From the NCBI GenBank assembly GCA_964608525.1, contig CAZSNJ010000002.1, positions 1 to 49,247 on the forward strand: a DNA stretch of 49,247 nucleotides. Direction: 5' to 3'. Positions 2,832 through 37,652 of the stretch are shown piece after piece. Every line of letters begins with the position of its first letter. Positions within the stretch are counted from its first letter, which is position 1. The notes below the pieces were generated by a model. The model had not been told where the DNA came from. It did no database searches and worked only from the letters and a program-made list of their open reading frames with translations. This DNA is from Candidatus Woesearchaeota archaeon (GTDB lineage: Archaea; Nanobdellota; Nanobdellia; Pacearchaeales; GW2011-AR1). A program made the translations under genes and the position numbers.

Positions 2832-4712
2832 ATGAAAGCATTAATTTTAGCAGGTGGACGAGGAACAAGATTAAAGGAATTTACAAAAGATAAAAATAAA
2901 AGTATGATTAAATTGTACGAAAAATCTTTAATAGAATATAATTTAGACCAAGCTGTAGAAATTGGTGTAAAGGAAATAATAATTGCTATTTGTTATCAAA
3001 AACAAGAAATTATTAAAAATATTGGAGAAAAATACAAAGGAATTAAAGTTACTTATGTGTATGTACCTGAAAAAAAAATAAAAGAGGGGTTAGTTACGGG
3101 AATAGAAGTATCTAAAAAAGCTATTGGAAAAAGTGATTTTATTTTAATGCTTGCTGACGAGATAATTGTTGATGCAAAAATTAAAGAAATGACTAAGAAA
3201 TTTAAAGAAGAAAATTTATTTGCAATTTGTGGAATTGTTAGTGAAAAAGATAAATATAGTATTGGAAAAACATATACTGCAATGCCTAATGAGAAAGGGC
3301 GTGTTTTTAGATTGATCGAAAAACCAAAAGTAAAAATAAATAATGTTAAAGGAACAGGCCACATAATCTTCAAAAATGAAATTTTAGATTATATTAAAAG
3401 AACTCCCATACATCCATTCAGAAATCAAAAAGAATTAGTTGATATGATCCAAGTTGCAATAGATGATAGCAGGAAAGTTTACATTTATCCTATTACAAAA
3501 AATTACATTAATATTAACACAAAAGAAGATTATAATTTAGCAAAAAAAAGTATTAAAGAAAATAATCCAAAAGTATTAATTATCCATAACCAAATGAAAT
3601 ATTATGGTGGTGCAGAATTATTAATTGTAGAACTCGCTAACTGGATGACTAAAATGGGAATTAAAAATGATATTTTAACACTTTCTAAATCAAAAAAAGT
3701 TGAAGATTTATTAATTGATACGGATATAATTATCCCTCCAAATAATATAGATTTAAGACCTCCTGGATATAAAGATATTAAAGATATTTTTAAAGCAATA
3801 AAAGTTTTTAGAAAAAAATTAAGAGAAATAAAAAATAATTATGATGTAATAAATTTTCATGATTTTCCTGTTACTTGGAGTTTATGGCCAAGAAAAAAAT
3901 CAAGTGTTTGGTTTATGAATCAACCCCCTAATTTATGGAGTAAACCTAATGCAGGATGGTTTTATAAGTTACTTAATAAAGTAAGAATCTGGTTTGATAG
4001 ATTTATTGTAAGACACGGAATAGATGAAGTATGTGTTTTAGACAGTTCATTTCATAAGCAAGCGTATGATAGATATGGTATTAATTCTAATATTGTTTAT
4101 TGTGGAGTTAATTATAATTTTTTCACTTATGGAAACCGAGAAAAAGCAATTAAAGAACATGGTTTGAAAGGGAAATTCGTTGTGATGTATTCTGGACAAA
4201 TTGCAGAAGGAAAAAATACTCTTGATTGTGTTAAAGCAATTGAAAAAATAAAAAATAAAATTCCGAATATTCTTTTAGTTTTAACTGGAAAAGATAATAT
4301 AGAATATAGAAAAAAAATAGATTTATATATTAAAGAAAAAAAACTTGAAAAATATGTTCAATTTATTGGTATGTTTAAAAAACGAGAAAGATTACAGGAT
4401 TTATATAAGGCAGCAAATATAGGTTTATTTCCAGTTGGAAAACAAGGAGGATGGATTGCCCCATTTGAGATGGTCTCAGCAGGAATTCCAACAATAATGT
4501 CAAGTGATATGGGAAGTTCTACTGTTGCTAAAGAACATAATTTATGTGTTGTTACAAAAGACTATAGTAATGCAATACTTGAAATTTATAATAAATATAA
4601 TAAATATAAAGAAAATACAAGAAAAGCAGCAATTTACATAAAAAATAATCTTTCATGGAAACAATATGCTGAAAGAATGATTTTAACTTTTAGAGGAGCT
4701 TGGAAGAAATAA
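2832..4712 (+). CDS. bifunctional sugar-1-phosphate nucleotidyltransferase / GT4-type glycosyltransferase fusion
   Basis: N-terminal MKALILAGGRGTRL (GxGTRL nucleotidyltransferase signature) over about 235 aa. The C-terminal ~390 aa is GT-B/GT4-like (IIHNQMKYYGGAELL, GLFPVGKQGGWIAPFEMVSAGIPTI). Confidence 0.8.
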   Translation: MKALILAGGRGTRLKEFTKDKNKSMIKLYEKSLIEYNLDQAVEIGVKEIIIAICYQKQEIIKNIGEKYKGIKVTYVYVPEKKIKEGLVTGIEVSKKAIGKSDFILMLADEIIVDAKIKEMTKKFKEENLFAICGIVSEKDKYSIGKTYTAMPNEKGRVFRLIEKPKVKINNVKGTGHIIFKNEILDYIKRTPIHPFRNQKELVDMIQVAIDDSRKVYIYPITKNYININTKEDYNLAKKSIKENNPKVLIIHNQMKYYGGAELLIVELANWMTKMGIKNDILTLSKSKKVEDLLIDTDIIIPPNNIDLRPPGYKDIKDIFKAIKVFRKKLREIKNNYDVINFHDFPVTWSLWPRKKSSVWFMNQPPNLWSKPNAGWFYKLLNKVRIWFDRFIVRHGIDEVCVLDSSFHKQAYDRYGINSNIVYCGVNYNFFTYGNREKAIKEHGLKGKFVVMYSGQIAEGKNTLDCVKAIEKIKNKIPNILLVLTGKDNIEYRKKIDLYIKEKKLEKYVQFIGMFKKRERLQDLYKAANIGLFPVGKQGGWIAPFEMVSAGIPTIMSSDMGSSTVAKEHNLCVVTKDYSNAILEIYNKYNKYKENTRKAAIYIKNNLSWKQYAERMILTFRGAWKK

Positions 4713-4714
4713 AT

Positions 4715-5461
4715 TTATTCTTTAAAGGCATATGACCCTAAGGTCTTAGTATTCATCTCTTGGATATAATGATCTGAAAAAACTAATTTAAGAGGTCCCA
4801 TATTAAAAGTTCCAAGTTCTTCATTTTTATTTGCATCAATATATTTTAGAACATCTTCTTTATTTTCTTGTCCTGTAAATCTTGTTAAATTAACTACTCT
4901 TAATTGGACTTTATGTTTTGAAAGTCCCCATTGAAAATCCATAGAAGGAACTTCTTTTCTTACTTTTTCTCCTAATCGTGATGTTAAATTAATCATTCTT
5001 TTATCATCATACCAAACTTGTGCAACAAGTCCATCTCCTCCAAAAACAACACCTTTTAATTCTGCTTGAAAAGTACTCTCTTTACTAATTTCTTCGTTTA
5101 ATATTTGCTTGTAAGCTTCTAGTTCTTTAGGACTTATTAACCATCTTTGTTGCCCATTTAAAGAAAAATCATTTATATTCTCTACAAGTTTATCAGAATA
5201 TTTATGACGATCTACTGTAAAATGAAGTATATTTTGAAAATAAAATTCAGGAAATCTTTCAAGAATTTCATTAGAAATTCCTACTAAAGAGTCAAATATG
5301 TTAAAGTGGGAATCAATTCTATCAATTAATGTAACACATTTTCTTTTCTCATTTTTAATATCTTCTAAAGAAATTACTCTATTTTTACCTTCAACATAAT
5401 TTTGTCTAAATTTTAAAGAAGCATCTTCATGTGCTTTTGTTTGTTCTCTTGACCATTTCAT
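4715..5461 (-). CDS. hypothetical protein
   Basis: 248-aa soluble ORF, convergent with the upstream gene (2-nt gap). No confident motif. Confidence 0.45.
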   Translation of the reverse strand: MKWSREQTKAHEDASLKFRQNYVEGKNRVISLEDIKNEKRKCVTLIDRIDSHFNIFDSLVGISNEILERFPEFYFQNILHFTVDRHKYSDKLVENINDFSLNGQQRWLISPKELEAYKQILNEEISKESTFQAELKGVVFGGDGLVAQVWYDDKRMINLTSRLGEKVRKEVPSMDFQWGLSKHKVQLRVVNLTRFTGQENKEDVLKYIDANKNEELGTFNMGPLKLVFSDHYIQEMNTKTLGSYAFKE

Positions 5462-5573: not shown

Positions 5574-6929
5574 ATGGCAAAATTAGTACTTGTAAATTCT
5601 GGAAGAGATTATGAATATGGAGTTCATGAACCTTTACACTTGCTAGTTCTTGCAGCATATGCAAAAAAACATGGCCATCAAGTTGCAATTGCAGACCAAA
5701 TAGCAGGTGAAGATATATTTAAAAAAATAAAAAAATTAAATCCAGATTATGTAGGAATAACTGGAACAACTGCTGTAATTAATGAAGCATATGAAATATC
5801 TGATTGGTGCAGGAAAAATGGATTTAAAACAATTCTTGGAGGAGTCCATGTTAGTGTTATGCCTGAGGAAGGTTTAGAACATGCAGATTATGTTGTTAAG
5901 GGAGAAGGGGAAGAAGCACTAATTAAAATTCTAAAAGGAACAAAAGAAAGAATAGTTACAGGAAACCCTATAACTGATTTAGATAAACTTCCAAAAATAA
6001 ATAGAGATTTAATAAATACTAAATATTATCAAAAAGGAAAAGATAGAAATCCAGGAACTCATTTGCATTTTGTCCCTCCAAATACAAAACTAAATTCAGT
6101 TTTATTTACTCGTGGTTGTCCATTTAATTGTATTTTTTGTCATAACAGTTGGAGAGGATTAAAAGTTAGATTTCATAGTGCGAAAAGAATGATAGAAGAA
6201 TTAAAAGAATTAGAAACAAAATATGGAACAGAAGCTGTATTTTTTATGGATGATGATTTATTATGTCATAAACAAAGAATTGTTGAATTTTGTGAATTGT
6301 TTATTAAAGAAAAGTTAAAAATTTTCTGGGGATGTCAGGCAAGAGTTTCAATGGTTAATAAAGATTTATTACAATTATTAAAAAAAGCTAATTGCAAACA
6401 AATTACCTTTGGATTAGAAGCAGGAAGTCAAAGAATATTAAGTATGTTAAAAAACGATACAACAACAATTGAACAAAATAAAAAAGCAATTAAAATGGTA
6501 AAGGATTCAGGAATTCTTGCTTGCGGCTCATTTATGATTGGAAGCCCTGGAGAAACTGAAGATGAAATAATGCAGACAAAAAAATTCATAATTGAAAATG
6601 ATTTAGATGGATTTGGAGCAACAGTTACAACTCCATTTCCTGGAACAAAATTATGGGAAATGTGTAAAGAAAAGAAAATTCTTCCTCCAAAAATAAACTG
6701 GAAAAATTTTAATTTGAATCAACTAACATTTGGTTTAACTGAAATTTCCCAAGAAAGAATGGAAAATATAAAAAAAGAATTTATAAATTTGGCATTAAAA
6801 AGAAATCCTGGAATGACTCCAAAAGATATGCTAAAAATATCTATAAAACATCCAAATAAAGCAATTACAAGAATTATTGAAAATCCTAAATCAATTATTA
6901 CAATTCTAAAACGATTAACAAATTTTTAA
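5574..6929 (+). CDS. radical SAM enzyme with N-terminal cobalamin-binding-type domain (class B / COG1032-like)
   Basis: N-domain motifs YVGITGTT, ILGGVHVS and KGEGEEALIKIL, then TRGCPFNCIFCHN (CX3CX2C at nt 6117-6140). Confidence 0.85.
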   Translation: MAKLVLVNSGRDYEYGVHEPLHLLVLAAYAKKHGHQVAIADQIAGEDIFKKIKKLNPDYVGITGTTAVINEAYEISDWCRKNGFKTILGGVHVSVMPEEGLEHADYVVKGEGEEALIKILKGTKERIVTGNPITDLDKLPKINRDLINTKYYQKGKDRNPGTHLHFVPPNTKLNSVLFTRGCPFNCIFCHNSWRGLKVRFHSAKRMIEELKELETKYGTEAVFFMDDDLLCHKQRIVEFCELFIKEKLKIFWGCQARVSMVNKDLLQLLKKANCKQITFGLEAGSQRILSMLKNDTTTIEQNKKAIKMVKDSGILACGSFMIGSPGETEDEIMQTKKFIIENDLDGFGATVTTPFPGTKLWEMCKEKKILPPKINWKNFNLNQLTFGLTEISQERMENIKKEFINLALKRNPGMTPKDMLKISIKHPNKAITRIIENPKSIITILKRLTNF

Positions 6930-6944
6930 GGATTAAAAAAATAT

Positions 6945-8048
6945 CTATCCTCGTCCAACATATACTGGACAATTAGCACATTCTTTTGGACATTTATTTT
7001 GCCTTATTTGTTTTCTTAAATTAACATATTTCTCTGAATACCAAATTTTTCTAAAAGGAGTTTTTAATGCATTGCCAAGTGAATTTTCATGCTGCCATGT
7101 TCTTTGATTGTTTTCATTTTGACCACAACAAGGAGTTACATTTCCTCCAACAAAAACAAATGGCATAATATACTGTTTACAATTAGTAATATCAGATTTC
7201 TCTTCTTCTGAACATTGATTAAAAGTTACAGGCAATCCTTTACTATGTGCATAATTAATTATTTTCTTTCTATAGGCTTCATCTACTTTTACCTGAAAAC
7301 CTTTCGCATGTTTAAATCCATGTAAAAGAGGTGTAATTAATACCTCGCCAACTTCAGTATTTAAACTTGCAATAAAATCAACAAATCCGAATAACTCATC
7401 TTTTGATTGTTTAGTTACAATAAAATGAAAGCTAAGAATTGGAAATCTTTTTTTCATTTGTTTTTTTAGTCTTACAAAAGTTTTTATGTTTTTAACAACA
7501 TTATCAAAATTAGATCCCTTACATATATATTCGGAGGTCTTTTTTGTCCCGCCATAAATAGAAACAAACTGAAAATCGGGTCCAATTTCAATTAATTCTT
7601 TAATTTGATTATCATCTCTAAAATTACCGAAATGATCAAATATTTCAATTATTGTTCCTCTTGATTTTATGTAAGCCATCATTTTATGATAATCTTTATT
7701 TAAATATCCTGAACCAATCCCTGTAAGACCAATCCATTTTGGTCTCCCAAAATCATCGAATACTTTTTTAAAATCAGAAAAGGACATACTCTCTGAAGGT
7801 TCCTTCCAATATGTTCTTTCACAAATTTTACATCTAAAATTACAAACAGTTGTTGGTTCTATTTCTAAAAATGGGGGAAATAAATCAATTCCAAATTTTG
7901 GAAAAAGTTTATTTAATAGAAAAGAACTCATCTTATGATTCCACCACAAAGGATATACCCAAAACATATTGTAAATTTCCCTAAATCTTCTAGCTTTAAT
8001 AAAATTAGAAAACAATTTCAATTTATGACTTAAGGACATCGATGGCAT
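6945..8048 (-). CDS. radical SAM enzyme with SPASM/twitch-like Cys-rich C-terminal domain
   Basis: EIEPTTVCNFRCKICE (CX3CX2C). C-terminal GGNVTPCCGQ ... CPKECANCPVY. Paralog of 11541..12602. Confidence 0.8.
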   Translation of the reverse strand: MPSMSLSHKLKLFSNFIKARRFREIYNMFWVYPLWWNHKMSSFLLNKLFPKFGIDLFPPFLEIEPTTVCNFRCKICERTYWKEPSESMSFSDFKKVFDDFGRPKWIGLTGIGSGYLNKDYHKMMAYIKSRGTIIEIFDHFGNFRDDNQIKELIEIGPDFQFVSIYGGTKKTSEYICKGSNFDNVVKNIKTFVRLKKQMKKRFPILSFHFIVTKQSKDELFGFVDFIASLNTEVGEVLITPLLHGFKHAKGFQVKVDEAYRKKIINYAHSKGLPVTFNQCSEEEKSDITNCKQYIMPFVFVGGNVTPCCGQNENNQRTWQHENSLGNALKTPFRKIWYSEKYVNLRKQIRQNKCPKECANCPVYVGRG

Positions 8049-8131
8049 ATAATTCTTAAAAAAATAGGGTTTATAAAAATGGTGTAAGAAAACTACAAAA
8101 CCTATTTAAATTCAAATATTCCAATTATTCA

Positions 8132-9643
8132 ATGAAGAAAATATTGTTTTTAAGAGCAAGTAGTGGATGGAAAGACCCTTCTCCTCCAATGGCTTTTAGC
8201 TATTTAGGTAAAATTGCAAAAGATAATGGTTTTGAAGTTTTAGTTGAAAATTTAAATGCTCAATATACTGCAAAAACTACTGAAGATATAATTAATTTAA
8301 TAAAAAAAGAAAAACCAACAATTGTTGGAATAAGTATATTTACTAATTACGCTATAGATTCATATGAATTATTAAGAAAAATAAGAAAATATTGTAAATT
8401 AATTATTGCAGGAGGTCCCCATGTTACTATCTATCCTGAAGAAGTTCTAGAAAAAGGAGCAAATATAGCTTTTATTGGAGAAGCAGAAAATTCATTTAAT
8501 GATTTTTTAAAAACAATTAATTCAAAAAAGAATTTAAGCAGTGTTAAGGGAATTATCTACAAAGATAATGGTAAAATTAAAAAAACAAAACCTCCAGAAG
8601 TTTATAATATAAATCAACTTCCTATCCCTGATAAAGAGGTTCATAGAAAAGAAGATTATATTAAAATAAAAGAAGAAATAGATAATTTTGGAGGAATATT
8701 ATCCAGCAGAGGATGTCCTGGGAAATGCACTTACTGTTACCATTCCTTATTTGGAAGAGCTTTTAGATATAGATCTACTGAAAAAATCTTTAAAGAAATT
8801 GAATATCTTTACAAAAATTATGGTATTAAACATATTAATTTTATAGATGATGCTTTTACAATTAATAAGCCAAGATTAATTGAATTATGTAATAAATTTA
8901 TTGATTCAAGATTACCTTTAGAATGGGTATGTGCAACCAGGATAGATTTCTTAGATAAAGAAATTATTTTGAAAATGAAAAAAGCAGGGTGCGTTATGAT
9001 AAGTCTTGGTGTTGAAAATTGTATTCCTGAAACATTAATAAAAATGAAAAAAACAGGAAACCCTAAATGGTATATAGAGCATGTTGGAAATATCTTAAAA
9101 TGGTGTAAGGAAGCAAAAATAAGAGTTGGAGTTAATATTCTTACTGGTTTTCCATGGGATAGTGTTAAAGATATTAAAAAATTACAGGCATATGTAAAAA
9201 GAATCAGTCCATATATTACTCAGGGTTTTTGTGGAGGAATTTTACAACCATTACCTAATACAGAAATTTATGATAAATATGCAAAAAAATATGGATTTGA
9301 AAAGTGGTGGTTATATAAAAAACCTTTATTTACAGAAAACTATCATCCATTTTTTATGCTCTATTATCATCCATTTTGGGAGCAATTAAATAATAATTTT
9401 TTTAATTTAGATAAAGGAGTTTTCAGAGAAATTGATAAACTTTATAGGATAATGGGAAAATGGAATTTAAGAATACTCGTTAAAAGACGTTTTAAAAATC
9501 CAATAATAAGGTCTATTTTATATAGCGGATTATTAATATCAAGCAATATTTCTCTTTTTCTATATAAAATTTCACCTAATTTAGAAAAAAAGATAATGAA
9601 AAATCTCTCTAATTTTAGTTATAAATTTAAATACAAAAAATAA
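8132..9643 (+). CDS. radical SAM enzyme with N-terminal cobalamin-binding-type domain (class B-like)
   Basis: IVGISIFT, IIAGGPHVT and IGEAENSF, then SSRGCPGKCTYCYH. The stop overlaps the next start (TAATG). Confidence 0.85.
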   Translation: MKKILFLRASSGWKDPSPPMAFSYLGKIAKDNGFEVLVENLNAQYTAKTTEDIINLIKKEKPTIVGISIFTNYAIDSYELLRKIRKYCKLIIAGGPHVTIYPEEVLEKGANIAFIGEAENSFNDFLKTINSKKNLSSVKGIIYKDNGKIKKTKPPEVYNINQLPIPDKEVHRKEDYIKIKEEIDNFGGILSSRGCPGKCTYCYHSLFGRAFRYRSTEKIFKEIEYLYKNYGIKHINFIDDAFTINKPRLIELCNKFIDSRLPLEWVCATRIDFLDKEIILKMKKAGCVMISLGVENCIPETLIKMKKTGNPKWYIEHVGNILKWCKEAKIRVGVNILTGFPWDSVKDIKKLQAYVKRISPYITQGFCGGILQPLPNTEIYDKYAKKYGFEKWWLYKKPLFTENYHPFFMLYYHPFWEQLNNNFFNLDKGVFREIDKLYRIMGKWNLRILVKRRFKNPIIRSILYSGLLISSNISLFLYKISPNLEKKIMKNLSNFSYKFKYKK

Positions 9644-10818
9644 TGAAACAAAAATTAAAAGTAATTCATATTGAACATTGTTCACATTCTTATTTTGTGT
9701 CAAATGATAAAAATCTTGATGATGTTGTTAGAGGAAGTTGGGGAACTCAGGTTGCAAGAGAAGTTAAAAAATTTTATCCAAATATTGAAATTGAATGCTG
9801 GTTTCCTGAAAAAATTGAAAAAGAAAAAAGAGAATTTAATTATCTTAATATGAAAATGAGAATTTTTCCAACAACATTCTCTCCTATGTATGCTCTTGAT
9901 TTTTCAATGCAAATGATAAATGCCTTAAAAGAAGAAATAAATAAATGTAAAAAGGAAAATACAAGATTAATAATACATATACATGAGTATCATAACCTTC
10001 ATGGACTCATAATTGCAGGATTATTTAAAAAACAAAAAATGATTGCACAACATCATGGAGGCAGTTGGCCATTAAAACATTTAAAACAAACAAGAAAGTA
10101 TCTTTTATTTTTTCCATTTTTTTTAATTGGACAAATATTAGAAAAAAGAGTTTTAAAAAATATTAAGTGTTTTTTTGCACTAAGCAAAGAAGAAATGAAT
10201 TATATAAAAAAAACTTCTCCGAATTCTAAAGTAAAATTTCAAACAATGGGAATTGAAGAAGAATATTTTGAAAATATAAGTAAAAAATTAGCAAGAAAGA
10301 AATTAAAATTACCACTAAACAAAAAAATATTTATTTTTATAGGAAGAATTAACAAAGAAAAAGGGATAAAATATCTACTCGATTCTATGAAGAAATTAAA
10401 AGATATAGATTTAAAGATACTCGGTTACACTCAAAGCATTAATTATTTTAAAGAATATTCAAAAAAACTTAAATTAAAAAATGTTGAATTTCTAGGAGGG
10501 GTTTTTGGTAAAAGAAAGTTATTATATCTAAGTGCTGCAGATGGATTAATCCTTCCATCCTCTAAGGAAGGTGCTCCGGTAACAATAATGGAGGCATTTG
10601 CAAGAAATCTTCCTGTAATTACAACTAATGTTGGAGGAGTTCCTTTAATGGTAAAAGATAAAAAGAATAGTTTAATTATAAAAGAGAAAAATTCACAAGA
10701 TATTGTTAGAGCAGTTAATCAATTTGTAAAAAAACCAATAAAAAATGTTAAAAAATATAGTGATAAATATAAATGGAAAAATATAATTAAAGATACAATT
10801 AAAGAATATGAAAATTAA
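9643..10818 (+). CDS. glycosyltransferase, GT4/GT-B family
   Basis: FIGRINKEKGI ... LILPSSKEGAPVTIMEAFARNLPVITTNVGG (E-x7-E type motif). Confidence 0.8.
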   Translation: MKQKLKVIHIEHCSHSYFVSNDKNLDDVVRGSWGTQVAREVKKFYPNIEIECWFPEKIEKEKREFNYLNMKMRIFPTTFSPMYALDFSMQMINALKEEINKCKKENTRLIIHIHEYHNLHGLIIAGLFKKQKMIAQHHGGSWPLKHLKQTRKYLLFFPFFLIGQILEKRVLKNIKCFFALSKEEMNYIKKTSPNSKVKFQTMGIEEEYFENISKKLARKKLKLPLNKKIFIFIGRINKEKGIKYLLDSMKKLKDIDLKILGYTQSINYFKEYSKKLKLKNVEFLGGVFGKRKLLYLSAADGLILPSSKEGAPVTIMEAFARNLPVITTNVGGVPLMVKDKKNSLIIKEKNSQDIVRAVNQFVKKPIKNVKKYSDKYKWKNIIKDTIKEYEN

Positions 10819-11539: not shown

Positions 11540-11540
11540 T

Positions 11541-13213: not shown

Positions 13214-13243
13214 TTGATAATTAGTAAATCTTTCCTTAAAAAT

Positions 13244-14146: not shown

Positions 14147-14203
14147 AAATTGAGATTAAAAATAGGGTTTAAAAGAATTATTATGGATGAATATATACAA
14201 AAA

Positions 14204-14602: not shown

Positions 14603-14669
14603 TTTATATAAATCTGCTTTATGATTTTTAATTCTTTTGGATGAATTATATCTTTTTTATAAAAAAGAA

Positions 14670-18006: not shown

Positions 18007-18007
18007 T

Positions 18008-25731: not shown

Positions 25732-25742
25732 GTTATATAAAA

Positions 25743-26153: not shown

Positions 26154-26283
26154 ACAATTCCAATTACAAAACATAGTCTAAAAATTTTAAAAGAATATTT
26201 TGAATCCAGAGGTAAATAAAGAATTAAATTATTATAAAACATATTAATAAATCCTTATAAAATAAAAAATTATAAATTCATCA

Positions 26284-26976: not shown

Positions 26977-27033
26977 TCTTAATTTTATCATTTCTTCTAT
27001 ATGTTGTCTTGTCTAAAAATAATAAAATTAATT

Positions 27034-27963: not shown

Positions 27964-28025
27964 AAATTTTATGGATAAAGATGATTTTTAAAGATTTGTG
28001 TTCTAAATTTTTTAGAATAAATAAA

Positions 28026-29513: not shown

Positions 29514-29611
29514 AATAAATCTGTATTATATTTATATTTAAATCTTATGTATTGGAATTAATTATACTTAATAATAGAAAAGATTAAAAACCAAAAAAAA
29601 TTAAGGATGAG

Positions 29612-30451: not shown

Positions 30452-30453
30452 AA

Positions 30454-31380
30454 ATGAACACTAAAATTTCAATGAGAGATTCGTTTTGGAATAGAATTTA
30501 TGATCTTGCAAAAAAAGATAAAAATATTATGCTTGTTGATGGAGATATGGGCGCTCCTTCTCTTGATAAATTTAGAAAAGACCTAAATGGACAATATTTT
30601 AGTGTTGGAATTGCAGAACACAATATGATTGCAATTGCTTCAGGTTTAGCAAAAGAAGGAAAAAAGGTTTTTACATATGCTATTGCTCCATTTATTACAT
30701 CAAGATGTCATGAGTTTACAAAATTAAATTGTGGACTTATGAAAATTCCAATAAAGCTTGTTGGAGTTGGGGCAGGATTTAGTTATGATGATTCTGGACC
30801 CACGCATCACACAACAGAAGATATAACAATAATGAGAGCTATTCCAAATTTGGAAATTTATTCTCCATCAGATAGTTCTATGGCTTCAGAACTTGCAGAA
30901 AATATATGTAAATCAGATAAACCGGTTTATATACGATTAGATAGAGAAATTCATCCTAATCTTTCTCAAGAAGGAGAAAATTTTGAAAAGGGATTTAGAG
31001 AACTTAAAGAAGGAGAAAATGTAGCAATCATTGCAACAGGAAACCTTGTACATAAAGCATTAGAAGTTCATGATTATCTTATTAATAAAGGAATAAAAGT
31101 TGGAGTCATAGATTTATACAAACTAAAACCCTTGCCTCAAGAATTGAATATGACTTTAGCTAAATATAAAAAAATTATTTCTATAGAAGAACATATTCTT
31201 GATGGCGGTTTTGGAAGTATTATTGCAGAAACGATTGTTGATAATGATTTAGATGTTAAATTAAAAAGAATTGGTTTAAAGTCATATATCTATGCATATG
31301 GAGGACGAGAAAATATAAGAAAATCATGCGGAATAGATATAGATTCTATTATTAAAAAAGTAAGTGAATTTATTAATTAA
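30454..31380 (+). CDS. transketolase, C-terminal (pyrimidine-binding) subunit
   Basis: FSVGIAEHNMIAIASGLA, GPTHHTTEDITIMRAIPN. Starts 2 nt after the N-subunit stop. Confidence 0.85.
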   Translation: MNTKISMRDSFWNRIYDLAKKDKNIMLVDGDMGAPSLDKFRKDLNGQYFSVGIAEHNMIAIASGLAKEGKKVFTYAIAPFITSRCHEFTKLNCGLMKIPIKLVGVGAGFSYDDSGPTHHTTEDITIMRAIPNLEIYSPSDSSMASELAENICKSDKPVYIRLDREIHPNLSQEGENFEKGFRELKEGENVAIIATGNLVHKALEVHDYLINKGIKVGVIDLYKLKPLPQELNMTLAKYKKIISIEEHILDGGFGSIIAETIVDNDLDVKLKRIGLKSYIYAYGGRENIRKSCGIDIDSIIKKVSEFIN

Positions 31381-33007
31381 AAAAATTCAATGCTTCCCAA
31401 CTTTCTTTATCAAGAGCTCTTTCAAATAAATATTTAAAAATAAATTTTTTCCCTGGATAGGATAATAAAAATAATTTAAACATATATGGATCCAATATCT
31501 TTTTTTGTCTAACAAGAGAAAATAATTTATCAAAAAAAGGTGTATTAAAAACATTTTTCATATCTTTATAAGGAATTTTTCCCACACTTTGTATTTTAAC
31601 TAAGGGGATAGAGATAAATACTGTATTTTTATCATTTAATAAATTACAAACTTCTCCATGGAATAACTTTTGAAATGATTTTAAATTATTCAAAAAATAA
31701 TTTTTTCTTACCATTAATTGATTTATATTCAATATTTTGTAAAAATCCTCTTTTTTTAAGGTATTAAATGATTTTTTTGATAAGTTTACTAAATAATCTC
31801 CTAAAGATTCAGAATAAACAAGATAATCACAGCAACTTATATCTTTTTTAGAAATTTTTAAAGAATAAGATTGAAAATAATTCTTATGAGTGGATTTTTT
31901 ATTAGATGCTTTAGAAAAATCCACATAATCTGCATTTTTTAATTTTTCTTTTAATTTATTAATTGGCAAACTTATTTCGTTTTCAGATAGAGTAATTATT
32001 TTTTCACTAACTTCTGGAGGATTATAATGTTTAATTTTGTCTTTTTCTATTTTGTTAAAATAGTTTGTGAATAATTTTTCCCAAGAACGATTTTTTACAA
32101 TATGATTGTAACCTTCTTTTGCAAGATTTTTTCTTTCTTTTTCATGTTTAAGATAATATTTGATTTTTTTAAGGAGTTCTTCTTCGCTTCTAAAATTCAT
32201 CTCCTTATTGTCTGCAAGAAAATCTATAGTTTTACTTGTATATTCGGTTAATAAAAATGAATTACATGCAAGTATTTCTATTGGACGTCCTTTCATTTGC
32301 CCTAATTTTCCTTGTTTAAAAAAGGTTTTTGAAAAATTAAGATTTATTTTAGATTGATTAATCACTTTTATAAAATCATCCGGATACAAAAAACCTCCAT
32401 AAATCTCTTTTAAATCAGCATATTTATGCCATCCTCCTCCAAATAATCTAATATTTACTCCTTTTTTCATTAAAAATTTTATATAATCATATCTATCAGC
32501 TAAAGGTGCCCCTATGAAAGTTACATCATAAATTTCCTTAAGGTTAAGAGGCCTATGATAGCCAGGATTTACTCCAATCATAAAATCTACTTTTCTTATT
32601 CCATCGTCTTTAAATATTGAAATCTCTTTTTTAGTTGTTAAAATATAATCAAAAAATAATGCATAATATCTTGTCCAATCATCAAACCTGAATTCATCAT
32701 CTCCTGTCCACATCATTGTTTTTGTATCCGGAGTAATTTCTTTTATTTTTAATAAAGTATCTATTTCAAATTCATTAAGAACAGGACAAATTAATAGATA
32801 ATCTGGTTTTTCTTTTTTAAGAAGATCTAAAAAATTTTTATTTAATGCTTCTTTACCAAAATAATAAAATTCATTTTTTGTGCTAAAAAGTATAACTTTT
32901 TTGAATATTTTTTTAAACACCGGCGGCCAATCTCTGTATTCCTGACTAGTTTTAACCTTACAACCCCAGCTTGCAAGCAATATTTTTTTACTCTTCAAGG
33001 ATTTCAT
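31373..33007 (-). CDS. CgeB-like / GT-B glycosyltransferase-like protein
   Basis: 544 aa. The central region LNFSKTF...MKGRPIEILACNSFLLTEYT...FRSEEELLKKIKYYLKHEKERKNLAKEGYNHIVKNRSW resembles CgeB/DUF3880-type glycosyltransferase-like proteins (from memory). Confidence 0.5.
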   Translation of the reverse strand: MKSLKSKKILLASWGCKVKTSQEYRDWPPVFKKIFKKVILFSTKNEFYYFGKEALNKNFLDLLKKEKPDYLLICPVLNEFEIDTLLKIKEITPDTKTMMWTGDDEFRFDDWTRYYALFFDYILTTKKEISIFKDDGIRKVDFMIGVNPGYHRPLNLKEIYDVTFIGAPLADRYDYIKFLMKKGVNIRLFGGGWHKYADLKEIYGGFLYPDDFIKVINQSKINLNFSKTFFKQGKLGQMKGRPIEILACNSFLLTEYTSKTIDFLADNKEMNFRSEEELLKKIKYYLKHEKERKNLAKEGYNHIVKNRSWEKLFTNYFNKIEKDKIKHYNPPEVSEKIITLSENEISLPINKLKEKLKNADYVDFSKASNKKSTHKNYFQSYSLKISKKDISCCDYLVYSESLGDYLVNLSKKSFNTLKKEDFYKILNINQLMVRKNYFLNNLKSFQKLFHGEVCNLLNDKNTVFISIPLVKIQSVGKIPYKDMKNVFNTPFFDKLFSLVRQKKILDPYMFKLFLLSYPGKKFIFKYLFERALDKESWEALNFFN

Positions 33008-33052: not shown

Positions 33053-34474
33053 TCAAGTTTTATCAGAAATATATCTTTTGAATATTCTTAAGAAATTATT
33101 TGGATTTATTTTATTAATTAATTTTCTTTTTATAAAACCAGAAAAATCTCCATCATCTGCATAGAAATTAGTTATAAAACCTGTTTTAAAAGACCACCAC
33201 CATAATCTCCATTTAGGATGTTCAGCAGTATAAAGTGGACAAAGTCCTTCACTTAACCAATAATTATCTGTCATCAATCCTTTTTCTTTTGCTAATCTAT
33301 ATACTTCTGTTCCAGGAAAAACAATTAAAATAGCTGGTTCTGTTGGTACTCTTAATTTTTTAGCTAAAATTGCTGTTTCCATTGCACTTTTTGAATTTTC
33401 TCCAGGAAGCCCAACAATTGATAAAAAAGCAGTTTTAATGTTATATTTTTTACAAACCTTAAAGGCATTGATTATCTGAGAAACTTTTACTTTTTTTCCA
33501 ATATTATCTAAAATACGCTGTGAACCACTTTCTACACCAAAGATTATTTCCATACATCCGGCTTTTTTCATCCAACTTACAAGTTCATCATTTAATGATG
33601 AAACTCTGCCCAAGCATTTCCATTTTATCTTTAATTTATCTTTTAAAATCATTTTACATAAATCAATAATTCTTTTATTATTACAAATAAATTCATCATC
33701 TGTAAAAGCAATATAATTGATATAAGGATATTTTTTTACCAAATATTTCATTTCTTTTAAAACATTTTTTGCACTTCTTTGAATCATAAATCTCCCCCAA
33801 TGAACAGAACTAGGACAAAAAGCACAGTTAAAAGGACATCCTCTTGAAGACATTATTTGAGCAAACTTATATTTTTTTATTATTCTATCAAAAAATTCAT
33901 GTTTTGGAAAAGGTAAAGAATCTAAATTTCTAATTCTTTCCCGAGGAGGTGTTTTAAGAATCTTCCCATTATATTTAAATGCAATTCCATTTATTTTTTT
34001 AAAGACAGAGATTTGTTTTTTTTGTTTTATTGCATTTAATAATTCAATAAATGTTATTTCTCCTTCCCCAATAACAGTATAATCTATTGGATAATTGTTA
34101 AGGACTTGGTCATATAGGCAAGTAGTATGAACTCCTCCAGCAATAATTGTTGTATTTGGACTTACTTCTTTAACCATTTTGGTTAATTTTAATGCAGAAA
34201 TACGACTATTAGATAAAATACTTATTCCAAAAACATCTGGTTTTTCACTCTTAATTTTTTCTCTTGCATTTTCCATAATATTCTCCCACTTAGAATAAGT
34301 TAAATTCAATATGCTAACCTTATGCTTATTTTTTTCTAGAACTGCTCCTAGATAAGCCAAACCAACAGGATAAAGATCTTCATCTTCGTTTTCCCACATA
34401 TCCCATGGAGCAATAGCAAGCATAATTTTCATGAAAATTTCAAGATTATTGGTTTTATAAAGATAATCATTCAA
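33053..34474 (-). CDS. radical SAM enzyme with N-terminal cobalamin-binding-type domain (class B-like)
   Basis: VFGISILSN, IIAGGVHTT and IGEGEITFIELLNAI, then SSRGCPFNCAFCPS. Alternative start at 34432 (MKIMLAIAPW). Confidence 0.85.
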   Translation of the reverse strand: MNDYLYKTNNLEIFMKIMLAIAPWDMWENEDEDLYPVGLAYLGAVLEKNKHKVSILNLTYSKWENIMENAREKIKSEKPDVFGISILSNSRISALKLTKMVKEVSPNTTIIAGGVHTTCLYDQVLNNYPIDYTVIGEGEITFIELLNAIKQKKQISVFKKINGIAFKYNGKILKTPPRERIRNLDSLPFPKHEFFDRIIKKYKFAQIMSSRGCPFNCAFCPSSVHWGRFMIQRSAKNVLKEMKYLVKKYPYINYIAFTDDEFICNNKRIIDLCKMILKDKLKIKWKCLGRVSSLNDELVSWMKKAGCMEIIFGVESGSQRILDNIGKKVKVSQIINAFKVCKKYNIKTAFLSIVGLPGENSKSAMETAILAKKLRVPTEPAILIVFPGTEVYRLAKEKGLMTDNYWLSEGLCPLYTAEHPKWRLWWWSFKTGFITNFYADDGDFSGFIKRKLINKINPNNFLRIFKRYISDKT

Positions 34475-36003
34475 TCAAATATTTTCCTTTTAATTGTATT
34501 TAAAATCATTATATCATTCTCATCTAAACTCTTTGTTAAAAAAATTAAAAATAAATAAAATAAAATAAATAAAGATCCTTGAAAAAATAAGGTCAATAAA
34601 TTAGCTGTTATAAATTGCTTAAGATAAATTAATAAAATTGTTGGAGGAATTATTGAAATGAAAATTCTTGCCATTTTTCGCCTTAAAGGGATTATTGAAA
34701 CATAGTGTTTTGTTTGAAAAAAGAAAATAAAAGTTAATATTATTTGACTAATCATTGTTGCAAATGCTGCTCCTGAAATCCCATAAATTGGAACAAGGAA
34801 AATATTTAATATTAAATTTAAGAATGATGCAATAATTATATTTGTTAAAATTATTTTAGATTTTCCAGTCATTGAAATTAAATTATGGGAAATTATTGAA
34901 ATTGATGAAAAAAGATAAGCTGTTGCTAAGAATCTTAGTGAATTTTCTGCACCTAAATATTCTTGGCCAAATAAAATATTAATAAATACTCCTGGAAAAA
35001 GAATCATCAATAAAAAGAAAGGTAAATTGACAATTAATATCCATTTAACAATTTGTTTACTTAATTCACTAACAAGTCCTATGTTTTTTCTTGAAAATTC
35101 TTTATTTATTAATGGAGAAAAAAGCCTTATGAATAAACTTGGGAAAAATACTATTAACCATGCAATAGGGATTGCTGCATTATAAATTCCAACATCAAAT
35201 GTTCCATTAAAATATCCAATTATAAATGAATCTATATTTGGCATTATCTCACTTAAAATTCCGAGTAAAATTAAAGGCCAAGAATAGGTAAAAAGTTCCT
35301 TTCTTATTTTTTTCTTAGAAGATTTACTTAATTTAATTTTTTTGAAAATCTCTGAAAGTTTATATTTGCAATAAATAAATGACGCTAAAAAAACTCCTAA
35401 AACGCCTAAAAAGTATGAAAAAATTATCGCATTAGTATTTAATCCTATAAAAATTAACAAAATAAGGAAAATTACTTTAAGAAAATTTTGAAAAAAATCC
35501 ACAATGAATGAATGGGCGCCAATTCTTTCAAATGATTGAATTACTGTTAAAAGAGCGTATGAAATAATATAAAGGGGAATTAATAGACTAAAAATTTTAA
35601 GAAAAAATATTAAACTAACATCATTAAATATATTAATTGAAATAAATTCTGCTGAAAAAAATAATATTAATCCTGCAAAAATACTTGAAAAAAATAATAC
35701 TATTAATGAAAATTTAAACACATACCGAATATTATTAATTTTCTTTTTTCCATTATAAAATGGAATAAATCTAAGAAGGCCTTCAAATAATCCCAGTGAT
35801 GAAAAAACAACAAACCATAAAAATATTATTACTGCTAAAGAAAAAGACCCATAAATTTCTGGTCCAAAATATCTTGCAATAATTACTCTATAAATGTAAG
35901 AAAATATTTTTGATAAAAATATTCCAAAAAATACAAATAAGGAAGATTTTACAAGTAATTTGAAATACCTATTTAATTCTTCTTGATTTACTGGTTTTTG
36001 CAT
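34471..36003 (-). CDS. MOP-superfamily polysaccharide/oligosaccharide flippase (Wzx-like)
   Basis: 510 aa with about 14 hydrophobic segments. The N-terminal LVKSSLFVFFGIFLSKIFSYIYRVIIARYFGPEIYG is typical of polysaccharide biosynthesis (PST) transporters. Confidence 0.8.
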   Translation of the reverse strand: MQKPVNQEELNRYFKLLVKSSLFVFFGIFLSKIFSYIYRVIIARYFGPEIYGSFSLAVIIFLWFVVFSSLGLFEGLLRFIPFYNGKKKINNIRYVFKFSLIVLFFSSIFAGLILFFSAEFISINIFNDVSLIFFLKIFSLLIPLYIISYALLTVIQSFERIGAHSFIVDFFQNFLKVIFLILLIFIGLNTNAIIFSYFLGVLGVFLASFIYCKYKLSEIFKKIKLSKSSKKKIRKELFTYSWPLILLGILSEIMPNIDSFIIGYFNGTFDVGIYNAAIPIAWLIVFFPSLFIRLFSPLINKEFSRKNIGLVSELSKQIVKWILIVNLPFFLLMILFPGVFINILFGQEYLGAENSLRFLATAYLFSSISIISHNLISMTGKSKIILTNIIIASFLNLILNIFLVPIYGISGAAFATMISQIILTFIFFFQTKHYVSIIPLRRKMARIFISIIPPTILLIYLKQFITANLLTLFFQGSLFILFYLFLIFLTKSLDENDIMILNTIKRKIFD

Positions 36004-36041
36004 TATTCAAATAATTAAGTATTGTTTAAATATTTTTAAAA

Positions 36042-37652
36042 TTATATTCTTTTTTTCAAAAGATTATCTTTTATAGATAAATAATTTTTTCTAAAAAAAT
36101 CTAATTCATTATAATAATCAACCCCTATTTTGTATAATCGACTAACGACAAAAAAACGCATATGACATTTTCTACAAGAAACATGCATAGCATAATGAAA
36201 TTTGTTTTCTATAAGGCAATTTTTGTAATTAATATTCTCTTTACAATAAGGACATTTAACTAATAAATTATATTTATTTTTACTCTCTTTTTTGATTTTT
36301 AATGGAAGTATGTAAAAAGAATATTTTCTTCTTGCATTAATTATTTCTTCTTTTAATTCTTCTATTTCCTCATCAGTCATATTGTCAGTCATATTTAACC
36401 AATTAGTGTGACTAATTTTATTTTTTATAAAGAATAATTTATCTTTTATTATTCCTTTTTTGATACAACGATTATAAATTTCGCTTCCAGGATAAGGCTG
36501 AATAAAACCTAATTTAATTTGGCCTCTTGAATACTTCTTCCAATAATCAAGAGTTTCTTTTGCTGTTTCTTTTGTTTCTGCAGAATCTCCAAAAATAAAA
36601 TTTCCTTGCACGCTTAACCCCCTTTCCATTGAAAGTTTAAGTGCCTCATTAATTTGGCTTGATGTTATTGGCTTTTTCATGCTTTTAAGTACTGTTTGAC
36701 TATAACTTTCAAATCCGAAACTTATTGCATGGCATCCTGAATCTTTAAGTATAGTTAACATTTCTTTATCTACTGTATTTACTGACAACTGACATTCCCA
36801 TTTACATTCCCATGGTGTTTCATTTACTAATTTTTTAAGATGTTTGCAAAATTCATATAATCTTTTTTTGTCAATTGAAAACATATCATCAATAATTTCA
36901 ATTATATTAATTTTATATTTTTTAACTGCTATTTTTAATTCATCCATGACATTTTTAATTGATCTCATCCTATATTTTCGTCCGAGAGTATGATAACAAA
37001 AAGTACATTGAAATGGGCAACCCCTACTACTTAGTATTGGATAAGTTCTAGGAAAATTGAATAAATTATAGATATTAGAGTTATTACATTCATTATCTAG
37101 TTTTTTTTCAAATTCTAAACCTTCAAAATCAGGTGCAGGTAATGAATCTATATTTTTTATTGGCTCTCTTTGTTTTGTAAAAATAGTTTTTCCATTTTCA
37201 TCCTTATAGATTATTCCATTGACATTTTTCAAATCCTTATTTTTAACAATTGCCTTTAGTAATTCTATAATTGTTATTTCACCTTCACCTAAAATTGCAA
37301 AATCAGGTTTTAAATTTTCAAAAACCAATTTTGGTTCACTAGTAATCAAAGGTCCTCCAAAAATAACTTTTGGTTGAGAATTATGATTCTTTACAGTATT
37401 AATTATCTTTTCAACAATTGCATATCCAATTCCAATATGGCCGGTGCATACAAAATCATATTTTTTATGATTTAACTTTTTTGTAATTAAATCTTCTATT
37501 TTCCCATTAAAATGATTTAAATTTAAGCAATCTACATTATATTTTTCTTTTTTTAAAACAGATGAAATATACCCTAATCCTAGTGGAAAAACATACTGAT
37601 AATCTGCCTTATTAGTTAAATTATATCTAGGAATTATTAGTAAAATTTGCAT
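36042..37652 (-). CDS. radical SAM enzyme with cobalamin-binding-type N-domain and C-terminal Cys4 ribbon
   Basis: FVCTGHIG, VIFGGPLIT and LGEGEITIIELLKAI, then SSRGCPFQCTFCYH. Extra C-terminal CPYC-x22-CRKC (nt 36165-36254). Confidence 0.85.
   Translation of the reverse strand: MQILLIIPRYNLTNKADYQYVFPLGLGYISSVLKKEKYNVDCLNLNHFNGKIEDLITKKLNHKKYDFVCTGHIGIGYAIVEKIINTVKNHNSQPKVIFGGPLITSEPKLVFENLKPDFAILGEGEITIIELLKAIVKNKDLKNVNGIIYKDENGKTIFTKQREPIKNIDSLPAPDFEGLEFEKKLDNECNNSNIYNLFNFPRTYPILSSRGCPFQCTFCYHTLGRKYRMRSIKNVMDELKIAVKKYKINIIEIIDDMFSIDKKRLYEFCKHLKKLVNETPWECKWECQLSVNTVDKEMLTILKDSGCHAISFGFESYSQTVLKSMKKPITSSQINEALKLSMERGLSVQGNFIFGDSAETKETAKETLDYWKKYSRGQIKLGFIQPYPGSEIYNRCIKKGIIKDKLFFIKNKISHTNWLNMTDNMTDEEIEELKEEIINARRKYSFYILPLKIKKESKNKYNLLVKCPYCKENINYKNCLIENKFHYAMHVSCRKCHMRFFVVSRLYKIGVDYYNELDFFRKNYLSIKDNLLKKRI

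Follow-up and report, generated by a model that had tools for sequence, protein, structure and literature searches.

A glycan island dense in radical SAM genes, paired with thiamine diphosphate enzymes, in a marine Candidatus Pacearchaeota archaeon

For the E1-like thiamine diphosphate (ThDP) enzymes AviB1/AviB2 of avilamycin and Pau11/Pau12 of paulomycin, the proposed role is to attach an acetyl branch from pyruvate at C-4, which is then ketoreduced, and YerE is the ThDP enzyme for yersiniose in O-antigens (PMC4753412). Here, we describe a 35-kb glycan island (positions 2832–37652) that encodes two ThDP enzymes and eleven radical S-adenosylmethionine (SAM) enzymes, and that lies in a window of 49,247 nucleotides, the whole stretch of contig CAZSNJ010000002.1 that was analysed. 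The source is a marine Candidatus Pacearchaeota (DPANN) archaeon, since NCBI gives this name to identical proteins; the initial annotation, made from the letters alone, had rightly guessed at a reduced-genome archaeon. Pacearchaeota and their DPANN relatives have yet to be cultivated; their genomes are very small, and they are believed to live attached to other cells. To our knowledge, almost nothing is known about the surface chemistry of DPANN cells, and this surface is their interface with host and viruses. The locus type, a glycan island with a Wzx flippase, is known already. What is unusual is how dense and diverse its uncharacterised radical SAM enzymes are, how systematically they pair with ThDP enzymes, and how the cassettes are spread over DPANN archaea, a metagenome-assembled genome (MAG) labelled as candidate phyla radiation (CPR) and a planctomycete, with the ThDP family extending into cyanophages. 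In the open-access literature, we found neither radical-SAM-rich glycan islands in DPANN nor radical SAM–ThDP coupling in glycan loci described. On balance, we favour the view that the island tailors envelope sugars with its radical SAM enzymes; for any particular reaction our confidence is low at best.

Every open reading frame (ORF) of at least 100 aa in the window was scanned against Pfam. All eleven ORFs that the initial annotation had named as radical SAM genes score above the PF04055 gathering threshold of 29.5 bits (36.6–102 bits), and each carries the canonical CxxxCxxC motif exactly once; it is absent from the remaining 29 of the 40 window proteins examined. Shuffling residues within each protein produced a mean of 0.08 motif-bearing proteins and never more than 2. 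The estimate of about one gene in three also held, as radical SAM genes account for 11 of the 32 genes and 40% of the bases of the island; with a genome-wide frequency of 1–3%, which is our assumption, the binomial probability of this density is 1e-14 to 1e-9. Recent duplication was ruled out as the source of the eleven genes because the highest pairwise identity among their products is 34%.

The eleven proteins fall largely into two classes. Five (encoded at 5574, 8132, 28026, 33053 and 36042; B12rSAM_a to B12rSAM_e) place a B12-binding PF02310 domain N-terminal to the radical SAM core, at 44.4–74.1 bits against a gathering score of 32.1. Four more (6945, 11520, 15690 and 18008; SPASM_a, SPASM_b, SPASM_d and SPASM_e) carry a SPASM domain, PF13186, above its gathering score of 21.5 bits. 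The protein encoded at 13244, rSAM_c, falls below this score, and that encoded at 22903, rSAM_f, has no SPASM match despite nine C-terminal cysteines.

None of the eleven reaches an NCBIfam equivalog cut-off. The B12-type proteins score 129–186 bits against the BchE, HpnJ, PhpK and ApyD models, whose cut-offs are 480–750 bits, and scores against AprD4 are 48–88 bits versus 500; no protein reaches the cut-off of the BchE, HpnJ, HpnR, PhpK, BzaD, Mmp10-type, AprD4, KedN5 or TsrM-type equivalogs. SPASM-type proteins score 72–144 bits on the tungsten-cofactor maturase model (cut-off 380), and DesII (TIGR04426, cut-off 450) is matched at 53 bits by SPASM_e, 30 by SPASM_d and 19.5 by SPASM_a. The nearest PDB entries by sequence, all weak matches, are DesII, BtrN, SkfB and BlsE for SPASM_e; MoaA, BlsE and DesII for rSAM_f; SkfB and viperins for SPASM_d; AprD4 (72 bits), 9ccb, OxsB, CysS and TokK for B12rSAM_d; and 9ccb and AprD4 for B12rSAM_c. 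Among the neighbours of SPASM_e and rSAM_f, SkfB, MoaA and PqqE stand beside sugar and nucleoside enzymes. The DxHxxG motif occurs in none of the five B12-type proteins, which is uninformative about cobalamin because class B radical SAM enzymes generally bind it base-off/His-off.

An alignment of 30 SPASM_e homologues reveals two invariant sets of cysteines, C38/C42/C45 and C262/C280/C323/C327; the invariance of the four C-terminal residues suggests one auxiliary cluster. The AlphaFold2 model of SPASM_e (pLDDT 92) retrieves SuiB, DesII, SkfB and BlsE in Foldseek at TM-scores of 0.62–0.69, and anSME and viperin also fall within 0.53–0.69. Within the upper range, DesII aligns at 15–16% identity, and BtrN is a weak match (24 bits by sequence, TMq 0.40 by fold). 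As SuiB and SkfB are its top structural neighbours, the SPASM-type enzymes could be maturases of RiPPs (peptides made by ribosomes and then post-translationally modified), and the island could make a modified, glycosylated peptide. A 77-aa ORF adjoins SPASM_e, and the combination of SPASM, B12 radical SAM and methyltransferase genes is known in RiPP clusters. We nevertheless consider this very unlikely: the CxxxCxxC motif of these enzymes starts at residue 23–70, which leaves no room for a RiPP recognition element or PqqD-like domain of about 100 aa; the Pfam scan found no PqqD, peptidase or ABC exporter; and intergenic gaps are too short for precursors. The 77-aa ORF has one cysteine, has no homologue in loci L007–L017 and is probably not a core part of the island. 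The conserved partners of these enzymes are ThDP enzymes, glycosyltransferases (GTs) and sugar enzymes.

The first ThDP enzyme sits in module 1 (12599–22730), a single minus-strand operon that further encodes a short-chain dehydrogenase/reductase (SDR), a DegT aminotransferase, SPASM_e, SPASM_d and rSAM_c, two GTs, a methyltransferase and a NUDIX hydrolase. Its cassette 1 comprises SPASM_e, the E1-like ThDP enzyme and SPASM_d, together with rSAM_c, NUDIX, the MetW-like methyltransferase and GT9; the 4,6-dehydratase-like SDR is two genes from the ThDP enzyme in the same operon. The ThDP enzyme fuses a PP domain (E1-alpha-like) to a PYR domain (E1-beta-like) without the E1-beta C-terminal domain, and its PDB matches are the alpha and beta subunits of pyruvate dehydrogenase E1. 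It contains the diphosphate-binding motif GDG-X(24-27)-N and the PYR-domain glutamate by which we recognised ThDP enzymes, and G135, D136, G137...N165 and E285 are invariant in 15 homologues of 47–67% identity. It is well short of the pyruvate dehydrogenase E1 families (94 versus 394 bits for alpha, 72 versus 321 for beta), lacks a Transketolase_C domain and has neither an E2 nor an E3 gene nearby. The family counts more than 1100 homologues, is split into two ORFs in several relatives, and corresponds to phrog_34187 (433 bits), which PHROG lists with unknown function. A phosphonate pathway, which would pair a ThDP decarboxylase with a Fom3/PhpK-type enzyme, was rejected: no PEP (phosphoenolpyruvate) mutase was found, PhpK scores are far under the cut-off, and the ThDP enzyme is of the E1/transketolase type rather than the TPP_enzyme_N/C type.

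Neighbouring radical SAM and ThDP genes occur in Nanoarchaeota, many metagenome contigs and a Phycisphaerae MAG, and natural fusion proteins join the two. P0014 (697 aa; L020 1557–3650, L021 190–2283) links the ThDP enzyme to an rSAM_c-like domain and neighbours genes for a SPASM radical SAM protein, NUDIX, a polysaccharide deacetylase and a MetW-like methyltransferase, while P0182 (513 aa) joins SPASM_e to a Transket_pyr domain. As judged from gene order and these fusions, the two enzyme classes appear to be systematically coupled.

A metagenome scan with the ThDP family returned 80 loci in three contexts. In the first (45–53% identity), the ThDP gene lies between a zinc-dependent alcohol dehydrogenase (Zn-ADH) and a PfkB kinase, often accompanied by a GmhA-like isomerase; this trio occurs in a Wolfebacteria MAG, about 30 metagenome contigs and a T4-like 199-kb contig. 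The cyanomyophages P-TIM68 (L022, KM359505.1 166688–173051) and S-SM2 share this arrangement, and in P-TIM68 the ThDP gene is set between Zn-ADH and a carbohydrate kinase; genes for an epimerase, nucleotidyltransferases, a phosphoheptose isomerase and a GT come next. In the second context (at least 57% identity), SPASM_e, SPASM_d and rSAM_c flank the ThDP gene as in the window. In the third (37–41% identity), split alpha and beta genes accompany DegT, several SDRs and PfkB, some with relatives of B12rSAM_c (297–416 bits) and others with a split transketolase, in one case (L101) together with aldo/keto reductases. Because of these three contexts, the ThDP family is best placed in nucleotide-sugar cassettes, and in the DPANN branch radical SAM enzymes appear to take the place held elsewhere by Zn-ADH. 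The family also occurs, at 55% identity, in a 735-kb record named 'uncultured phage', and L018 and LR756501 are among the phage-side records that carry it. No close relatives of SPASM_e or rSAM_c were found in the scanned viral contigs.

When one genome per GTDB species was searched with the ThDP protein, 11 loci at 57–67% identity came up in 11 species, from Pacearchaeota, Nanoarchaeota and Woesearchaeota MAGs and one Phycisphaerae MAG. All but one 21-kb locus hold 2–7 radical SAM genes each. Orthologues of 8 of the 11 radical SAM enzymes recur in the related loci at 47–68% identity, among genes for GT1, GT9, Gtf3_C-like GTs, methyltransferases, DegT and Wzx whose order is shuffled. Three loci (L008, L013 and L017) end as the window does, with the same 150-aa protein and then secD and secF, and L027 adjoins the same 150-aa protein. 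Since the flank and the kinds of gene are shared and their order is shuffled, the island looks like a lineage-typical, variable glycan locus at a fixed chromosomal site beside secDF. Islands of this kind appear to be a common feature of the archaeal lineage and no peculiarity of this contig.

Comparative gene order further presents the island as a mosaic of four modules and not as one linear pathway. Besides module 1 and module 2 (22903–33007), module 3 (5574–12602) holds B12rSAM_a, SPASM_a, B12rSAM_b, GT1, the methyltransferase MT1 and SPASM_b, and module 4 (33053–37652) holds B12rSAM_d, Wzx and B12rSAM_e; modules 3 and 4 recur piecewise in related loci. Homologous cassettes elsewhere are always among GT and sugar genes. 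In the Phycisphaerae MAG (L007/L023, 532–12257), cassette 1 lies on a 49% GC contig beside genes for FtsH, a SpoIIE-type phosphatase and signal peptidase. Its genes run methyltransferase, GT9, a 726-aa Glyco_trans_1_2 protein (an analogue of the window's 544-aa GT), B12 radical SAM, rSAM_c, SPASM_e, a 742-aa protein, ThDP alpha, ThDP beta and SPASM_d, and those that are shared are 35–58% identical to the window proteins. The presence of cassettes in bacterial MAGs suggests cross-domain transfer.

The source is a metagenome-assembled genome, so the clustering might be an artefact of assembly or binning, a case that the initial annotation had itself raised as a chimeric contig. The exact SPASM_e protein is found on 22 contigs, and five of six loci from independent assemblies, built from different samples with different assemblers (GCA_002688755.1, GCA_001039965.1 and ENA MEGAHIT and SPAdes contigs), are 99.6–100% identical to the window over 14–21 kb. 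Because independent assemblies give the same sequence, the contig is not chimeric; GC content is also uniform at 23–30% and gene order is kept in other species, and we give an artefact practically no weight. The sixth locus, L003 from JGI 3300035206, represents a strain variant. It matches the window at 99.96% identity down to about 14.67 kb, at the SDR gene; from there identity falls to 81% and the first NUDIX gene is missing (compared stretch: L003 14390–17415, window about 11141–14668). This places a recombination breakpoint inside the operon at about 14.67 kb, as expected for a surface-glycan locus.

Module 2 contains the second ThDP enzyme, a split transketolase, whose N-terminal, pyrimidine-binding and C-terminal domains are all present over two adjacent ORFs (TK_N and TK_C). 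The TK_N half scores 274 bits on the NCBIfam transketolase model, whose cut-off applies to the unsplit protein. Cassette 2 runs rSAM_f, unk230, an inositol monophosphatase (IMPase)-like protein, an HD-domain protein, B12rSAM_c, TK_N, TK_C and a large Glyco_trans_1_2 GT. It recurs at 62–75% identity in two further Nanoarchaeota-type contigs, L104 and L105, with the IMPase-like and HD genes (33–53%) and the GT (38–42%) less well kept. A minimal version in L103 (6016–13265), a 27%-GC MAG whose NCBI label, Paceibacterota, we take as given, consists of a GT9-like gene, rSAM_f, B12rSAM_c, TK_N, TK_C and the GT; here the radical SAM and transketolase genes are 62–68% identical to those of the window and the GTs 29–38%. 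The protein unk230 has no Pfam, PHROG or PDB match, and its single-sequence AlphaFold2 model reaches a pLDDT of only 30. We rejected it as a third NUDIX protein, as it has a REISEE stretch but no significant BLASTP match to the second NUDIX protein, and a PDB profile search came back empty. An OxsB/OxsA-like pair of B12rSAM_c and the HD protein was not supported, the PDB sequence search giving neither OxsB for B12rSAM_c nor OxsA for the HD protein.

The conservation of this cassette raises the possibility that it serves DPANN and CPR cells in a core role in nucleotide, cofactor or central-carbon metabolism and just happens to lie inside the island, and that only some of the radical SAM enzymes tailor sugars. 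Orthologues of rSAM_f are 65–73% identical across many Nanoarchaeota and the Paceibacterota-labelled MAG, with a NUDIX-fused variant (P0358, 517 aa) and an intein-bearing one (P0300, 549 aa). In L103–L105, B12rSAM_c (62–75%) stays next to the transketolase and the split transketolase (63–71%) keeps its cassette position, whereas the adjacent GT is kept at just 38–42%. HD, NUDIX and IMPase proteins are nucleotide or sugar-phosphate hydrolases, and a split transketolase is the normal archaeal form. Against this, the same large Glyco_trans_1_2 GT closes the cassette in all four genomes examined, L103 begins with its GT9-like gene, and the flanks in L104 and L105 hold a polysaccharide deacetylase, GTs and methyltransferases, joined in L104 by a PglF-like dehydratase-aminotransferase fusion. 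Relatives of B12rSAM_c also stand next to split E1-like ThDP genes (L064, L066, L073 and L092), and they and the split transketolase keep company with DegT, SDR and aldo/keto reductase genes in unrelated metagenome contigs. The radical SAM proteins of the cassette match no cofactor or tRNA-modification equivalog. We therefore regard a core function as the less probable explanation of cassette 2, albeit the most serious competitor to sugar tailoring.

A different substrate is suggested by the B12-type enzymes. HpnJ is the top NCBIfam match of B12rSAM_c (156 bits) and B12rSAM_e (181 bits), and all five B12-type proteins match the lipid 'ladder' B12 radical SAM family and HpnR, so these enzymes might modify scavenged isoprenoids or glycolipid head groups in the manner of HpnH/HpnJ/HpnR or the modifiers of glycerol dialkyl glycerol tetraethers (GDGTs). 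DPANN cells are thought to depend on host lipids, and soluble GT-B enzymes could make glycolipids. The HpnJ scores compare, however, with a cut-off of 578 bits, and the GDGT synthase Tes is matched at 27 versus 450 bits. The island encodes nucleotide-sugar enzymes and Wzx but no isoprenoid or lipid-synthesis gene, and HpnJ itself acts on a sugar moiety. Lipid tailoring is thus improbable in our view.

The remaining genes of the island bear out its initial annotation as a glycan locus (Table 1). Pfam confirms the nucleotidyltransferase–GT fusion, four more GTs, Wzx, SDR, DegT, two methyltransferases and two ThDP enzymes named there, and adds two NUDIX hydrolases. Nucleotide-sugar activation, a 4,6-dehydratase, an aminotransferase, five GTs, a flippase and recurrence beside secDF all agree with a glycan island. 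In the 49-kb window, Pfam and a scan for transmembrane (TM) segments detect no initiating phosphoglycosyltransferase, Wzy, AglB or chain-length regulator, in agreement with the earlier report that the first and third of these were not visible; the only multi-TM proteins reported are Wzx, the 150-aa protein, SecD and SecF.

Table 1 Features of the island and its right flank. Scores are in bits; L numbers are related loci and percentages are amino-acid identities of orthologues.
Feature	Position	Strand	Domain evidence	Further matches and occurrence
NTP_transferase + GT4/GT1 fusion	2832–4712	+	PF00483 103.6, PF00534 59.5, PF13439	Top NCBIfam matches AglF/RmlA-like, all under cut-off
248-aa protein	4715–5461	-	No Pfam or PHROG match, no TM segment	
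B12rSAM_a	5574–6929	+	PF04055 102, PF02310 69; CPFNCIFC at residue 182	64–65%, adjoins GT1 in L014, L015
SPASM_a	6945–8048	-	PF04055 40.6, PF13186 38.5; 7 C-terminal Cys	63–65% in L010, L015
B12rSAM_b	8132–9643	+	PF04055 72.5, PF02310 61.5	Heads four-gene + strand unit; 63–68%, adjoins GT1 in L010, L015, L072
GT1-family (GT-B) GT	9643–10818	+	PF00534 117	
Class I SAM methyltransferase MT1	10808–11539	+	PF08241 59.9	
SPASM_b	11520–12602	+	PF04055 70.2, PF13186 56.2	Longest frame from TTG 11520; likely start ATG 11541, as taken by gene callers and the initial annotation; convergent pair with MT2 kept in L017, L104, L105
MetW-like class I methyltransferase MT2	12599–13213	-	PF13489, PF07021, 68 each	Last gene of long - strand operon
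rSAM_c, 300 aa	13244–14146	-	PF04055 36.6, SPASM 18.9 (sub-threshold); Cys-rich C-terminus	Next to ThDP gene in L010
NUDIX hydrolase 1	14204–14602	-	PF00293 40	With ThDP/radical SAM core in L017, L020, L021; missing from L003
SDR, NDP (nucleoside diphosphate)-hexose 4,6-dehydratase-like	14670–15650	-	PF16363 167.6	Top NCBIfam dTDP-glucose 4,6-dehydratase, 217 vs cut-off 365
SPASM_d, twitch-like	15690–16814	-	PF04055 63.3, PF13186 28.9	8-nt overlap with ThDP gene; 49–65%, adjoins ThDP in L007, L008, L016, L017; by score L067, L072
Minimal E1-like ThDP enzyme, 408 aa	16807–18033	-	PF00676 72.3, PF02779 30.1	
SPASM_e	18008–19057	-	PF04055 72.5, PF13186 36.3	
77-aa ORF	19086–19319	-		Called by gene finders in L001–L006
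DegT/DnrJ/EryC1 sugar aminotransferase	19332–20450	-	PF01041 356.7	Top NCBIfam PseC, LegC, 4-amino-4,6-dideoxy transaminases, all under cut-off
GT9-family (heptosyltransferase-like) GT	20454–21413	-	PF01075 49.8	With radical SAM/ThDP cassettes in L007, L010, L014, L017, L067, L072, L103
Gtf3_C-like GT-B GT, 421 aa	21465–22730	-	Precomputed PF26337 on identical protein; no match in our Pfam scan	Orthologues in L010, L014, L017
rSAM_f, 16 Cys	22903–24063	+	PF04055 77.1	First gene of cassette 2
unk230, 230 aa	24148–24840	-		Conserved protein of cassette 2, 69–70% in L104, L105
Inositol-monophosphatase-family phosphatase	24916–25731	-	PF00459 78.1	Also in L104, L105
NUDIX hydrolase 2	25743–26153	+	PF00293 31.4	
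HD-domain phosphohydrolase	26284–26976	+	PF01966 38.7	50–53% in L104, L105
Aldo/keto reductase	27034–27963	-	PF00248 141.7	Not conserved in L103–L105
B12rSAM_c	28026–29513	-	PF04055 60.6, PF02310 44.4	Divergent from transketolase genes
Split transketolase, TK_N	29612–30451	+	PF00456 142.9	
Split transketolase, TK_C	30454–31380	+	PF02779 99.9, PF02780 76.1	
Glyco_trans_1_2-type GT, 544 aa	31373–33007	-	PF13524 87.3	
B12rSAM_d	33053–34474	-	PF04055 81.9, PF02310 74.1	
Wzx/MOP-type flippase	34471–36003	-	PF01943 68.2 (vs 28.2), PF13440, PF01554; 14 TM-like segments	
B12rSAM_e	36042–37652	-	PF04055 65.9, PF02310 46.7	50–54% in L009, L017; high-scoring relative in L027
150-aa 4-TM protein, SecD, SecF	37706–40647	-		Right flank

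The window is densely coded at 23–34% GC, and the flanks of the island encode archaeal RpoD/Rpb3, ribosomal proteins S11, S4 and S13, DUF655, a diphthamide-synthase-like protein and SecDF. To the left of the island lies a 207-aa, extremely acidic, Glu/Ser/Gly-rich low-complexity ORF (1457–2080, - strand) with no Pfam match. Two tRNA genes are found directly downstream of secF (40617–40827 and 40803–41804, - strand). One is a 90-nt tRNA that overlaps the predicted SecF start and for which ARAGORN gave no anticodon, and the other, a tRNA-Arg(CCT), overlaps a free-standing double-LAGLIDADG ORF of 333 aa at the 3′ end of the ORF; a tRNA-Leu(CAA) follows at 42389–42474. Near the right end of the window, a 293-aa protein (46523–47404, + strand) with hydrophobic stretches at both ends, as seen by eye, and no Pfam match precedes two adjacent MacB/FtsX-type permease genes (47405–49238, - strand).

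By analogy with characterised enzymes, the island most likely tailors envelope sugars by radical chemistry, branches or extends them by two carbons and C-methylates them, and it is plausible that its radical SAM enzymes C-methylate, deoxygenate or branch sugars. The nucleotidyltransferase domain at the left end would activate a hexose-1-phosphate, which the SDR would dehydrate to an NDP-4-keto-6-deoxyhexose and DegT would transaminate. Twitch-type radical SAM enzymes may then create or process carbonyls by deamination, dehydration, oxidation or epimerisation, following the logic of DesII, BtrN or BlsE, and the E1-like ThDP enzyme could transfer two carbons from a 2-oxoacid onto a sugar carbonyl, the role put forward for AviB1/AviB2 and Pau11/Pau12. 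The transketolase of module 2 would likewise add two-carbon units, giving a second, chain-extended or rearranged sugar. Methylation or rearrangement of unactivated carbons, by GenK, HpnJ or AprD4 logic, is a candidate role for the B12-type enzymes of modules 3 and 4, and the NUDIX, HD and IMPase-type hydrolases may edit nucleotide or phosphate groups. Five soluble GT-B enzymes would assemble the glycan on a lipid carrier for flipping or export by Wzx, with initiation and final transfer presumably encoded outside the island.

Several observations weigh against this scheme. Every radical SAM chemistry assigned above rests on analogy, because no radical SAM enzyme of the island reaches a curated equivalog cut-off. 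The predicted fold of SPASM_e fits the peptide maturases SuiB and SkfB as well as the sugar enzymes DesII and BlsE, and with neighbours so mixed the substrate class cannot be read from it. Cobalamin binding by the B12-like domains is a prediction, and AprD4, the closest solved relative of two of these proteins, is known as a dehydratase rather than as a methyltransferase. The radical SAM/ThDP core does not seem strictly to need an NDP-4-keto-6-deoxyhexose, since the Phycisphaerae and Paceibacterota-labelled cassettes lack SDR and DegT. The conservation of rSAM_f and its intein variant look more like a core function, and the split transketolase might be no more than the usual pentose-phosphate enzyme of the cell. 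Lastly, as the window contains no initiating transferase, polymerase or oligosaccharyltransferase, the acceptor (a lipid-linked glycan, a protein or a lipid) is not fixed.

More tentatively, portable cassettes of radical SAM, ThDP and GT genes may be shared by DPANN archaea with a planctomycete and at least one bacterium labelled as CPR, and together with the five B12-type radical SAM enzymes they may build branched, chain-extended, C-methylated envelope sugars. In such cassettes, radical SAM enzymes would make reactive sugar carbonyls or radicals to which minimal E1-like or transketolase-type ThDP enzymes add two-carbon units, a coupling that the existence of fused ThDP–radical SAM proteins supports. 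If this is true, envelope sugars with no characterised counterpart would form the surface with which an ultra-small episymbiont meets its host and the viruses of that host. The devotion of 40% of the island to uncharacterised radical SAM enzymes, and the similar make-up of its relatives, points to sugar chemistry outside the current catalogue. The radical SAM–ThDP pairing offers a small testable unit, either about five genes, as in L103, or the SPASM_e/ThDP/SPASM_d core. Five B12-type domains also make one ask where a reduced marine cell gets its cobalamin, and the sharing with a planctomycete, a CPR-labelled MAG and, for the ThDP family, cyanomyophages bears on gene exchange among small-celled lineages and viruses.

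The octose pathways of avilamycin and paulomycin resemble the island in placing an E1 alpha/beta-type ThDP enzyme in a deoxysugar operon with an NDP-hexose 4,6-dehydratase, and the Zn-ADH beside the phage and CPR relatives of the ThDP enzyme fits their ketoreductase step. In contrast to AviB1/AviB2, compared here by description, the alpha and beta halves of the island enzyme are fused into a minimal 408-aa protein without the E1-beta C-terminal domain, and it is flanked by, and elsewhere fused to, radical SAM proteins rather than accompanied by a ketoreductase. The sugar-tailoring enzymes DesII, BtrN, BlsE, AprD4, GenK/GenD1, NeoN and AviX12 of antibiotic pathways belong to the same two classes as those of the island (twitch/SPASM, and B12-like plus radical SAM). 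They are the nearest solved relatives by sequence, and in the case of DesII and BlsE also by fold, and the suppliers of DesII-type substrates (4,6-dehydratase and DegT) share an operon with island radical SAM genes. Identity to these enzymes is nevertheless just 13–20%, and antibiotic pathways use one or two radical SAM enzymes for secreted products of actinomycetes or Bacillus, whereas the island has eleven in an archaeal envelope-glycan locus with Wzx. The hopanoid cluster (HpnH, HpnI, HpnJ, HpnK and HpnO) likewise combines radical SAM enzymes, including the B12-domain protein HpnJ, with a GT and an aminotransferase, but the island proteins reach about a third of the family cut-off and no squalene-hopene cyclase or other lipid gene accompanies them. 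The cassette of cyanomyophages P-TIM68 and S-SM2 shares the ThDP family (45% full-length identity) and a nucleotide-sugar context, and has no radical SAM partners. In overall plan, the island is closest to O-antigen, capsule and agl clusters, with which it has in common nucleotide-sugar genes, GT-B enzymes, methyltransferases, a MOP/Wzx flippase, strain-variable content and a fixed chromosomal site; it differs from them in that one in three of its genes encodes a radical SAM enzyme and two encode ThDP enzymes.

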